DNA of 34,788 nucleotides, from assembly GCA_001823065.1 (NCBI GenBank), contig MHTJ01000002.1, forward strand, positions 119,532 through 154,319, given 5' to 3'. Under the pieces are notes generated by a model. That model worked only from the letters and a program-made list of their open reading frames with translations, searched no databases and was not told where the DNA came from. Below, in pieces: positions 25,000 through 27,100 of the stretch. Numbering within the stretch: position 1 is the first letter of the stretch; every line of letters starts with the position of its first letter. Position numbers and translations under genes: made by a program. Source of the stretch: Candidatus Vogelbacteria bacterium RIFOXYD1_FULL_44_32. Its GTDB lineage: Bacteria > Patescibacteriota > Minisyncoccia > Phycocordibacterales > XYD1-FULL-46-19.

Positions 25000-25716
25000 A
25001 TGTTATACATCTACTTTGGATCAGACATAAATAAATCTCAACTGGCTTGGCGGAAATTTGCCGAGGCGGTAAAAACTAAACGCCCAGACGCCGAAGTTTT
25101 TGAATTGGCGGAGGATATTTTTTCGGAAACATCTGCCGACGAGCTTTTGCATGGACAGGGTTTGTTTGTGAGTAAACATATTGTTTTAGCTAAAAGATTA
25201 TTGCAAAACCAGGAGGCCGAGCAGTGGTTATTTGATAATCTAAAAGATATTAGTGAAGCCGACCATATGTTTTTACTATGGGAAGAAAAATTGTTGGCAC
25301 CCCAAAAACAAAAATTAGAAAAGTTTGGGGCTGAACTAAAAGAATTTATTAAAAAACCAGAAGCAGAAATTAAAGACAATTTTATTTTTTCAATTGGTGA
25401 TGCATTGGGAGCGCGTGATCGGCTAAAGTTGTGGAAGGCGGTGGCTGGGGCTAGTCTAAAGGGCTATGAACCAGAAGAAATTTTTTGGCAGTTGTTTGGG
25501 ACAGCACGCAATATGGCCTTGGTCGCTAGGGAAGAGAGTGACCAAGATATACCACTTCATCCATTTGTAGCTAAAAAGACACGGGGTTATTTAAGGAATT
25601 GGGGTGACGAAGGTGCGCTCAAGCTCACTGGTGACCTGATGGCCTTATATCATAATGTGCGGCGCGAGAGTCGGGATTTAGATGTAGCACTGGAGCGGTT
25701 TGCGCTTGAGATATAG
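25000..25716 (+). CDS. holA: DNA polymerase III delta subunit, short form
   Basis: MLYIYFGSD start, GLFVSKHIV (SLF-like clamp-contact motif), IFSIGDAL, LHPFVAKK, ALERFAL end. Confidence 0.75.
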   Translation: MLYIYFGSDINKSQLAWRKFAEAVKTKRPDAEVFELAEDIFSETSADELLHGQGLFVSKHIVLAKRLLQNQEAEQWLFDNLKDISEADHMFLLWEEKLLAPQKQKLEKFGAELKEFIKKPEAEIKDNFIFSIGDALGARDRLKLWKAVAGASLKGYEPEEIFWQLFGTARNMALVAREESDQDIPLHPFVAKKTRGYLRNWGDEGALKLTGDLMALYHNVRRESRDLDVALERFALEI

Positions 25717-25757
25717 ACTAATGATATTTTTTTATGTAGAATACGTGCGTTAGATTT

Positions 25758-25830
25758 GCCCTGTTAGCTCAGTTGGTAGAGCAGCTCCCTTTTAAGGAGA
25801 TGGTCGCAGGTTCGACTCCTGCACGGGGCA
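25758..25830 (+). tRNA. tRNA-Lys (anticodon UUU), CCA not encoded
   Basis: Acceptor GCCCTGT/ACGGGGC, D-arm GCTC/GAGC, anticodon loop CTTTTAA, T-arm GCAGG-TTCGACT-CCTGC. Upstream promoter TAGACT-17-TAGAAT at 25714-25742. Confidence 0.96.
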
Positions 25831-26180
25831 CAAAAAGGCACTTTTTGTGCCCCGTGAGCGAGACAACTGCTTGTCTCGCGTCAGGAGTCGAAAGGACTTT
25901 CAATGTTTGTGAGCGAAGAGCAAACAAACCTGAAAGTCACCCGCGACCGTAGGTCGAGACTCACTTATTGTTACTGTAAAAATATCTTGTCTCCCGTGCA
26001 GGAGTCGAACGCCGGAGCGCACGAAGTCGGAGGTCAGCAGAGCTGGAGGTCAGCAGAGCTCCGGTGCGAGGCGGTGCCTAGACCGAGACTTGGCGACGGC
26101 CCAGGATCGAGTCGAGGGAGACTCCTGCAAAAGTATCAGTCGAAAGTCACCCGCGACCGTAGGTCGAGACTCCTGCACCA
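25831..26180 (+). repeat. tRNA-3'-end mirror repeat array
   Basis: Antisense copies of the tRNA 3' end at 25847-25892 (split by a hairpin) and 25989-26010. Sense fragments GACTCCTGCA near 26120 and 26168. 31-nt direct repeat at 25932-62 / 26142-72. 2 x 16-nt tandem at 26029-60. Confidence 0.85.
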
Positions 26181-26261
26181 CTTCAAATCTTGCCATTTCC
26201 CAATTTAGGCATAGAATCGGTGATAGAAAAAACATCCGCATAGCGGAGGAGGATTGTAAAA

Positions 26262-26561
26262 ATGGGAACAGTAACAACAGGTGTAAATCCTCAGTTATTA
26301 CCGAGAGTCAAAGATTTGCCGAAAAGAGACAGAGCCCTTCGTTTTGGGGACAGTCTTGTCTTTCATTCCGAAACCCATCGGGTCTTGGTGGTGCGTCGGG
26401 GGCCTGATGGGCCGGTGGTTGTCCACTCGGCCGACTTCGACGGCCTTACCCATTTTGGGTTCCTTCAGTATGTCGAACAGCAGGTATATCTGTTTGGGCT
26501 TAAATACCAGAAGTCCAGCCTGGTTTTTGGCCCGACAGATATTGCTTATGATGTTTACTAG
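26262..26561 (+). CDS. GC-rich orphan hypothetical protein
   Basis: Promoter TTGCCA-16-TAGAAT (26190-26217), SD GGAGGAGG (26245-52), hairpin at 26568-26595 after the stop. Confidence 0.7.
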   Translation: MGTVTTGVNPQLLPRVKDLPKRDRALRFGDSLVFHSETHRVLVVRRGPDGPVVVHSADFDGLTHFGFLQYVEQQVYLFGLKYQKSSLVFGPTDIAYDVY

Positions 26562-26620
26562 TCTTTTGGCCCGGGGCGCGTTTGCGTTCCGGGTCGTCGT
26601 TTGTTACAAATATCATACTT

Positions 26621-27100
26621 GTGACTAAGAAAACTTTTTTAATTCTCTATAACATTCGTTCTGCCTACAATGTGGGGGCTATTTTTCGTACAGCGGACGC
26701 GGTAGGGATAAGTAAAATATATTTGGTGGGGGTCACACCGTGCCCGGCCGACAAGTTTGGCCGAGTAAACAGCCAAATCGCTAAAACGGCTTTGGGGGCG
26801 GAAAAGACGGTGGCTTGGGAGTATAAAAAAACGATTGCCCCACTTATGGCCAAACTAAAAAAAGATGGGGCTCAGGTGGTTGCGCTTGAGCAAGATGAAG
26901 AGGCGATTGACTATCGGAAGCTAAAACCAAAAGGTGATTGGGCACTTATTCTAGGCGAAGAAACCAAGGGCCTGTCGAAAGCTATTTTAAGTCAGTCTGA
27001 TTCGATTGTAGAAATCCCGATGAAAGGGAAGAAAGAGTCTTTAAATGTGTCGGTTGCGGCCGGGGTGGCGTTATTTCAAATAATAGGCAATAAAATTTAA
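26621..27100 (+). CDS. SPOUT (TrmH/SpoU family) RNA 2'-O-methyltransferase
   Basis: NIRSAYNVGAIFRTADA, LILGEETKG, EIPMKGKKESLNVSVAAG. Likely GTG start at 26621. Confidence 0.93.
   Translation: MTKKTFLILYNIRSAYNVGAIFRTADAVGISKIYLVGVTPCPADKFGRVNSQIAKTALGAEKTVAWEYKKTIAPLMAKLKKDGAQVVALEQDEEAIDYRKLKPKGDWALILGEETKGLSKAILSQSDSIVEIPMKGKKESLNVSVAAGVALFQIIGNKI

Follow-up and report, generated by a model that had tools for sequence, protein, structure and literature searches.

Why a transfer RNA (tRNA) gene should be followed by antisense mirrors of its own 3' end is the question raised by a locus of Candidatus Vogelbacteria bacterium RIFOXYD1_FULL_44_32. The window, i.e., the whole stretch of DNA analysed here, with a length of 34,788 nucleotides (nt), lies on contig MHTJ01000002.1 (positions 119,532 to 154,319 of the forward strand) of a genome of 705 kb in 5 contigs, designated below as G000, in which 38 tRNAs are recognised by ARAGORN. 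The sole tRNA of the window, tRNA-Lys(UUU), whose gene does not encode the CCA end, is placed at 25758-25831 by ARAGORN and at 25758-25830 by Rfam (RF00005, 69.4 bits), on the + strand, as are all the window features given below. The explanation that we consider the best, with about an even chance of being right, is that the mirrors are the arms of small integrative cassettes, devoid of open reading frames (ORFs), which replace the end of the gene they enter. The genomes compared were all assembled from metagenomes, where repeats close to tRNAs frequently fail to assemble, and the counts over related genomes are not independent of each other.

The end of the tRNA-Lys gene forms part of a perfect palindrome (25822-25856, with 16-nt arms at 25822-37 and 25841-56, a 3-nt loop and 100% complementarity), which is composed of the last 10 nt of the tRNA with a short trailer, a spacer (25832-25846) and the start of an antisense arm, and which was not scored as a terminator in a consensus scan. 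The antisense copy is split by a hairpin just as the first-pass annotation had described: its first part (25847-25856), the complement of tRNA positions ~65-74, and its second part (25882-25892; 11 nt, 100%), the complement of the T-loop and the 3' strand of the T-stem, are separated by an inserted hairpin of 25 nt (25857-25881) with a predicted 9-bp stem and a CUGC loop, the stem covarying among copies. This arm belongs to a cassette designated here as the A type, whose core (25893-25959) includes a long variable hairpin (~25894-25938), a 5-bp hairpin with a GUA loop (25944-25956) and the letters AGA, is predicted to fold at -45.9 kcal/mol (z -4.2), and recurs in its layout in six further copies of G000. 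The sense arm of the cassette is represented by a remnant of 3 nt (25960-25962), cut by a second insertion, as judged against the complete copies behind tRNA-Tyr and tRNA-Ala(GGC) and against the orthologue in the same-genus genome G004. The second cassette, of the D type, consists of a 24-nt spacer assigned by position (25963-25986), an unbroken antisense arm of 24 nt (25987-26010, 92% complementary to 25810-25833), a core (26011-26119) in which repeat and fold analysis revealed a 16-nt tandem duplication (26029-26060), and a sense arm (26120-26129) that pairs with 25997-26006 and closes the element, so that the ends of the cassette pair together in a predicted fold of -68 kcal/mol (z -3.1). 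Its antisense arm is the second mirror reported earlier at 25989-26010, within two bases of the extent given here, and the sense fragments said to enclose the inserts are likewise present, at 26118-26129 and 26166-26177. Cores related to this D-type core were found behind tRNA-Leu genes of the genome G010 and behind a tRNA of the genome G006.

Downstream of the D-type cassette, a 12-nt linker (26130-26141) leads to a repetition of the A-type 3' end, which continues into the rest of the sense arm (26142-26178) and includes a 31-nt exact direct repeat (25932-25962 = 26142-26172) that had escaped the first-pass annotation. The simplest history of the window is that of two nested cassettes, the A-type behind tRNA-Lys having been split later by the D-type; the latter would have used the tRNA-end-like sense arm of the A-type as its target, and its insertion would have duplicated the 31 nt. 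We read 26142-26178 as the displaced original end of the A-type cassette. The array ends before a promoter-like site of the next gene (26190-26217, a consensus match only, 10/12), and another such site (25714-25742, also a consensus match only, 9/12) precedes the tRNA gene. No intrinsic terminator, i.e., a G+C-rich hairpin with a T run, was found by the consensus scan on the + strand of 25500-26500; the spacers in other cassette copies look terminator-like by eye.

The mirrors are not a peculiarity of this tRNA. In the 320 nt behind each tRNA of G000, antisense copies of the last ~16-24 nt of the gene and sense copies of its last ~15-18 nt come up repeatedly, in the layout described below. The strict criterion for counting them was an exact run of at least 9 nt from the last 16 nt of the tRNA, located no more than 300 nt downstream. 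By this criterion an antisense copy follows 7 of the 38 tRNAs, a sense copy 12 and either of them 14, as compared with 21 antisense and 17 sense matches among 1406 pairs of a tRNA with the downstream region of another (1.2-1.5%). Three more loci (Met, a truncated Lys-CUU and Glu-UUC) were recognisable by eye only. The survey of all tRNAs and the comparison with relatives, both proposed in the first-pass annotation, thus spoke for its observation, the same hairpin-split element being found behind tRNA-Lys of G004, with 87% identity to the window over the tRNA and the element, which is an independent support. Besides, the interval 25200-26800 is covered by four overlapping pieces in the Logan contigs of run X1, with 0 differing letters and with breaks at repeats only; run X1 is possibly the source sample, so that this match is not independent. 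Chance similarity is contradicted by the difference between the own and non-own downstream regions, and an assembly artefact by the element of G004 and the Logan contigs. Contigs do often break near these repeats, and two contigs of G000, C2 and C5, both start ~400 nt before a cassette, and yet chance or artefact is refuted as far as these data go and retains a practically negligible probability. The A-type cassettes at these contig starts (C2:330-620 and C5:380-560) have arms that match no recognised upstream gene; the repeats are probably where assembly stopped, and a tRNA that failed to assemble may be lacking there. The depth of the D-type piece in X1 (15.5, as compared with 21-22 in the flanks) gives no basis for a claim.

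The unit common to these loci starts with the gene end, to which a palindromic spacer and then an antisense arm are attached; the conserved folded core comes next, and a sense copy of the gene end closes the series, with ~100-170 nt per cassette and no ORF. In the copies, the palindrome that begins in the gene end usually crosses the spacer and reaches into the arm uninterrupted. It had been supposed that the repeats here are inverted in place of the direct ones left by ordinary integration; the inverted arm does exist, but in addition to a direct sense repeat, which is the more constant feature of the two. At least four core types, A, B, C and D, were distinguished, of which the families A, C and D were defined by eye, BLAST and regular expressions rather than by calibrated models. 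In the A type, the arm is split by the CUGC-loop hairpin, and a variable hairpin and a short GUA-loop hairpin follow, while in the B type the arm is unbroken and two to three hairpins are linked by invariant purine-rich strands. Arm styles and cores are freely combined, as in G006, where a hairpin-split arm is joined to a D-type core. The complete A cassette behind tRNA-Tyr is predicted to close into a four-branch fold (-70.3 kcal/mol, z -8.6).

Nested or rearranged arrays similar to that of the window occur in the genome G002 and at an intron-bearing tRNA locus of G000, where a cassette is followed by a second cassette and then by a repeated 3' piece of the first, and the A cassette behind tRNA-Lys of G004 is followed by a 3' remnant of another A subtype. 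The intron of the locus in G000 is a group I intron (Rfam RF00028, 55.2 bits at a threshold of 50; G000:C3:133708-133986, L034:709-987) within a tRNA missed by ARAGORN, and the cassettes behind it are of the C type and then of the B type. The downstream sense copies of tRNA-Tyr, tRNA-Ala(GGC) and tRNA-Gln(UUG) are followed by CCA, and their genes are without CCA; an origin of the sense arm from mature tRNA was rejected, since in most loci the repeat continues into the genomic trailer, and the arms of those loci are therefore read as original gene ends. The CCA is encoded in only 6 of the 38 tRNA genes of G000, and among these only the Met gene has a cassette.

The relation between the three versions of the gene end (functional gene, antisense arm and downstream sense copy) was compared at 75 tRNA-linked B loci, 8 of the 83 being skipped. 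The antisense arm, with a mean length of 17.3 nt, differs from the gene by 5.9% mismatch, and the sense copy, with a mean of 16.1 nt, by 4.0%. Wherever the gene disagrees with the sense copy, the antisense arm agrees with the gene in 32 cases, with the sense copy in 1 and with neither in 2. Moreover, the arm extends a median of 7 nt deeper into the gene than the start of the sense copy (at least 3 nt in 59 of the 75 loci), which in the tRNAs means through the T-loop. The 32:1 fit and the deeper reach together indicate that the gene end, the spacer and the antisense arm are one unit, of which the sense copy is the odd one out.

The same order is found behind protein genes. The downstream copies, although diverged, respect the codons of the gene tail: those of the end of rpmG keep the reading frame, 18 of 21 differences being third-position changes (3 of 3 loci), and several copies of the end of rpsI switch the serine codon family. 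At the rpsI locus of four congeners, the site is empty in the genome G001, where the stop codon is followed by the terminator and the promoter of the next gene, and filled in G000, G004 and G002, where the terminator and the next gene's promoter follow the downstream copy and not the functional one; furthermore, the downstream copy of G004 uses the codons of the functional tail of G002. Thus, the comparison for gain and loss proposed in the first-pass annotation gave one empty and three filled sites, but no cassette-spanning joint in runs X3/X4 and X5, which covered the flanks or the tRNA only. The arm matching, the codon-aware copies and the empty and filled rpsI sites can be read together as an insertion in the last ~20 nt of the gene, the resident end being pushed downstream, and the homeologous gene tails suggest an exchange between genomes.

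The cores are structures under selection. An alignment of 85 B-core copies from a phylum-wide set was fitted to R1, a covariance model of the B core, the copies having been picked by an exact match of 26 bases around the second helix. In this alignment 98.8% of the pair cells are standard and 10 of the 13 pairs are changed on both sides; the observed values were attained in 0 of 500 shuffles, and the signal is lost when the partners are slid. The non-Watson-Crick cells amount to 21 G-U and 1 A-C when the strand is read in the sense of the gene, from which it follows that the tRNA-sense strand is the folding strand, either as RNA or as single-stranded DNA; most likely, the core folds on this strand within a read-through transcript of the gene, the two being presumably co-transcribed. 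In the A type, the hairpin that splits the arm has 8 of 9 pairs changed on both sides among 20 copies, six of these pairs having been pre-filtered for complementarity, and among the hairpin-motif matches of G000, 10 of 12 beside the junction motif are fully complementary, as compared with 12 of 55 for the loop motif alone. Some B cores lack the optional middle hairpin (e.g., L001:285-361, - strand), and in these the invariant GGAGG, 5 nt, TTG and an open frame of 8 codons closed by the conserved TGA follow one another; the frame is probably a coincidence, the covariation pattern favouring structure over coding.

The distribution of the cassettes extends far beyond the genome of the window. R1 matches 9 copies in G000. 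Within the family, 25 of 43 genomes, from 13 of 22 genera, contain between 1 and 14 copies, and among 150 other genomes sampled evenly over the phylum, 10 have a match at E <= 1e-6. The exact 26-base B pattern was present in at least 119 stretches, one genome per species being taken. Among the matches listed, the 80 titles all belong to Patescibacteria, or the candidate phyla radiation (CPR), or to unclassified metagenome-assembled genomes; among the matches listed are Kaiser-, Taylor-, Nomura-, Campbell-, Wolfe-, Yonath- and Zambryskibacteria, Paceibacterota and Minisyncoccia, with many labelled as uncultured Saccharibacteria and a few titled just 'bacterium'. Of the 81 matches listed, 52 follow a tRNA on the same strand (26 anticodons), 25 are without a tRNA recognised by ARAGORN and 4 are at contig edges, and in the family 25 of the 29 loci fetched from relatives follow a same-strand tRNA. 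Where a tRNA is lacking (33 rows), the B core stands behind the C-terminus of the ribosomal protein S9 (rpsI) in 10 rows and behind that of L33 (rpmG) in 3. Pfam confirmed S9, L33 and an anticodon-binding domain of aminoacyl-tRNA synthetases (aaRS) upstream of cassettes, one B cassette of G000 standing behind a class-II aaRS gene, and Rfam confirmed transfer-messenger RNA (tmRNA) directly upstream in the loci L144 and L221, with another cassette intervening in L154. All the targets, tRNAs above all, are conserved genes of the translation apparatus (tRNA, tmRNA, rpsI, rpmG and aaRS).

The cores appear not to be dedicated to one target. On a tree of 119 cores, which is weak owing to ~89 positions, 55 changes of tRNA identity were counted as compared with 60.5 +/- 1.9 in shuffles (3 of 300 being as low), so that target identity is almost random on the tree and a dedication of cores to single targets was rejected.

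From the above, a gene-end-replacing cassette may be imagined to act as follows. It would supply its target with a functional version of the final 15-25 nt, by which the gene would stay intact, and would enter by recombination within the last ~20 nt of the target; the downstream sense copy would then be the displaced original gene end, and a precise loss might take place between the direct repeats. The cassettes would be copied or exchanged between genomes, and their antisense arm may have arisen when the gene end was copied by fold-back, an appealing idea in view of the uninterrupted palindrome of the gene end, spacer and arm. The proposal of the first-pass annotation that the mirrors are small non-autonomous elements with arms templated from the host thus agrees with the recurring cores and the neighbour-matched arms, from which we infer their movement. 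Several points weigh against this reading. No recombinase, transposase or reverse transcriptase tied to the cassettes was found in the searches of G000, nor was any excision junction, circle or identical recent copy seen. The near-random placing of targets on the core tree demands either frequent re-targeting or a homogenisation of the cores within genomes. The third-position bias of the rpsI copies is weak (41/100). The cassettes are kept at orthologous sites across the genus, where the flanking gene is only ~73-76% identical, and the cores differ among copies by compensatory changes, which favours a retained function no less than a selfish spread.

The main rival explanation is that the cassette is a cis-acting RNA device, co-transcribed with the tRNA or mRNA, in which the arm pairs with the gene 3' end or with the downstream sense arm and which serves 3'-end maturation, termination, stability or the release of a small RNA by the tRNA-processing enzymes. 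The covariation of the core helices with G-U tolerated on the gene-sense strand only, the retention of the cassettes at orthologous sites within the genus, and the lack of a consensus terminator between the tRNA-Lys and the next promoter-like site of the window would all suit such a device. So would the foldings, since in the minimum-energy fold of tRNA-Lys with its antisense arm (-72.4 kcal/mol, z -7.1) the 3' half of the tRNA is paired with the arm and hidden, and since complete cassettes close upon themselves, as that behind tRNA-Tyr. The refolding of the precursor that would sequester the T-arm and the acceptor stem, as the first-pass annotation had supposed, is thermodynamically possible; as a general purpose of the arms it does not hold, because the protein genes carry the same architecture, with an arm that pairs with coding sequence. 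Furthermore, the arm-to-arm helix has no compensatory upkeep, the antisense arm tracking the gene copy at 32:1, the presence of the cassettes is patchy (25 of the 43 family genomes, at differing tRNAs, with the rpsI site empty in G001), and a downstream copy resembling a displaced gene end is not needed for an RNA device, which for these reasons we regard as rather unlikely. It is bolder, and in our opinion unlikely, to see in the cassettes self-templating, protein-light homing elements, in which a programmable guide, namely the antisense arm, would be made by fold-back from whichever gene end precedes a terminator-like hairpin, in keeping with the unbroken palindrome, and the cores A-D would be new catalytic or polymerase-recruiting folds of RNA or single-stranded DNA that drive the insertion.

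An origin as non-autonomous transposons of single-stranded DNA, moved in trans by a Y1 HUH enzyme (IS200/RAYT) or by Xer acting on an att-like hairpin, with the arm as a DNA guide, would account for the order of the parts, which equals the product of the integration of a folded single strand as established for CTX-phi, and for the one-strand tolerance of G-T, which suits single-stranded DNA as well as RNA. G000 indeed has Xer and one Y1_Tnp/RAYT-like ORF (C4:61699-62361, L159:1327-1992), with a Pfam score of 43.4 bits and an NCBIfam REP_Tyr_transpos score of 40.7 bits, under the cut-off of 80; the RAYT-like gene occurs in 29 of the 43 family genomes, with 1-8 matches in the relatives. Yet the two do not co-occur: B cores and the RAYT-like gene are found together in 16 genomes, B cores only in 9, the RAYT-like gene only in 13 and neither in 5, in a survey with a single-protein query by which divergent paralogues may be missed, and G004, G007 and G010 have cassettes and no RAYT-like match, so that the RAYT-like gene as a motor was rejected. 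In addition, the repeats of 8-45 nt stand against an IS200/IS605 element, which is not known to make a target duplication, and no common core site, as needed by a site-specific recombinase, is shared by the T-loop of tRNAs and the tails of rpsI and rpmG, whereby this origin becomes quite improbable. Very improbable is the view of the cassettes as ordinary scars, left at tRNA genes by integrated phages or islands of which the remainder was deleted. Integration does classically leave direct repeats of tRNA 3' ends, and core-less partial tRNA 3' halves do occur behind tRNA-Ser(UGA) and tRNA-Arg(UCU) of G000, but scars explain neither the conserved covarying cores at hundreds of sites across the phylum nor the antisense arms that match each target, and no true cassette copy was found in the viral contigs of IMG/VR. 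The two pattern scans of the latter gave 76 and 14 stretches, about the chance number for 16-19 specified bases, with a loosely complementary stem in only 4 of the 76 and with the element's other features in none, and a phage origin was rejected on this ground.

The partial tRNA halves (L006, G000:C2:157900-158365, behind tRNA-Ser(UGA), and L007, G000:C2:160225-160600, behind tRNA-Arg(UCU)) comprise the variable arm or the T-arm with the acceptor strand, show compensatory T-stem differences and are without a core, so that they resemble exchanged alleles or the scars of ordinary integration. As to the RAYT-like genes, up to 8 matches are many for genomes of 0.5-0.9 Mb. The single tyrosine recombinase of G000 (PF00589) is Xer-like and located away from the cassettes, and RVT_1, TnpB and IS110 gave no match in G000. 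In Rfam 15, searched with the window region and 17 cassette loci, only tRNAs passed the gathering threshold, and none of the other families, tRNA-like RNAs, group I and II introns and self-cleaving ribozymes included; the best other match, LOOT, covered at full length (23.5 bits at a threshold of 46.4), was rejected as a match of generic hairpins. No description of such cassettes turned up in searches of the published literature, supplementary files excepted.

The preferred reading, that of gene-end-replacing cassettes, may be set against known systems. The 3' ends of tRNA and tmRNA genes are the integration targets of phages, integrative and conjugative elements and genomic islands with tyrosine integrases, and integrative elements at tRNA and tmRNA 3' ends were reportedly treated by Williams in 2002. 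The cassettes resemble these elements in using the 3' halves of tRNA and tmRNA genes and conserved gene ends, with a crossover around the T-loop and in arrays, and in bringing a replacement gene end and leaving the displaced end as a direct repeat; a direct repeat of the target 3' end is indeed present at both borders, with the gene intact. However, the cassettes are of 100-170 nt, contain no integrase or other ORF, and have a target-matched antisense arm and a folded core in addition. With the REP/REPIN-RAYT, BIME, ERIC, Correia and Rickettsia palindromic elements they share the short, ORF-less, hairpin-rich, multicopy and orientation-specific character and the position at gene 3' ends, and some families of small structured repeats may be moved in trans; unlike them, the cassettes have inconstant arms that repeat the adjoining gene and are flanked by a duplicated gene end, and no RAYT link was found. 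As for the REP palindromes, hairpins with GUA or GAA loops are common not only in the cassettes but also in ordinary G000 terminators, the stem sequences varying. Near-identical long palindromes, consisting of an A run, a C-rich stem, a GTA loop, a G-rich stem and a T run, are scattered across G000 (e.g., C2:112504, C2:183355, C3:295124, C4:49674 and C4:6682) and look like a REP-like terminator family. The GCGAAGC mini-hairpins were rejected as a mark of single-stranded DNA (106 as compared with 57 expected from composition, yet other permutations of the letters reach 221), and the CGAAG loop occurs also in many ordinary terminators of G000, the motif not being specific.

In topology only, the order of a sense site, loop, antisense site, cargo and sense site and the hairpin on one strand resemble the CTX-phi integration and the integron attC, but in the cassettes no dif-like or common core site was seen, the targets vary, nothing points to Xer and the size is two orders of magnitude smaller. 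IS200/IS605 and their miniatures have single-strand hairpins and a short stretch complementary to the target beside the insertion point; in the cassettes, by contrast, this stretch is of 12-25 nt as compared with 4, the Y1 gene is uncorrelated, target duplications are present where none would be expected, and the targets share no fixed motif, whereas such elements insert 3' of one of 4-5 nt. Miniature inverted-repeat transposable elements derived from DDE transposons are recognised by constant terminal inverted repeats, to which the transposase binds, and a short target duplication of fixed length, whereas here the arms vary by locus and match the neighbouring gene, and the direct repeats are of ~8-45 nt, possibly including diverged copies. 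Finally, plant dicistronic tRNA-snoRNA genes and RNase Z processing appear among the reference titles of a paper on TIGR-Tas (PMC12045711), which is itself unrelated to the cassettes. To judge from these titles, such genes resemble the cassettes as a structured RNA riding on a tRNA promoter, which could be freed by tRNA 3' processing, and differ from them in having no target-matched arms or gene-end duplication.

The cassettes seem to be also sites of inversion or rearrangement. In the genome G002 (L020, G002:C20:1234-4857, at ~821-1068), the convergent genes of tRNA-Val and tRNA-Lys share one CUGC-loop hairpin, which is flanked by the antisense acceptor arms of both, and tRNA-Lys is inverted relative to the flanking gene in G003 and G004.

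For genome annotation, the cassettes explain the contig breaks beside tRNAs in CPR assemblies and can mislead the annotation of tRNAs, terminators and attachment sites. The class supplies at least one new, strongly covarying structured family of RNA or single-stranded DNA, the B core, present in hundreds of genomes and not in Rfam. If the homing elements considered above were real, they would constitute a new way of choosing and rewriting target sites, apart from CRISPR, bridge RNAs and group II introns. The gene-end replacement at tRNA, tmRNA, S9 and L33, with no visible integrase, makes it conceivable that the arm matching may hide a new targeting mechanism. Should the reading of gene-end-replacing cassettes hold, these would be a widespread, undescribed class of miniature elements in the ultra-small CPR/Patescibacteria, and up to ~40% of the tRNA genes would be decorated by them in the otherwise stripped-down genomes of 0.5-1 Mb.

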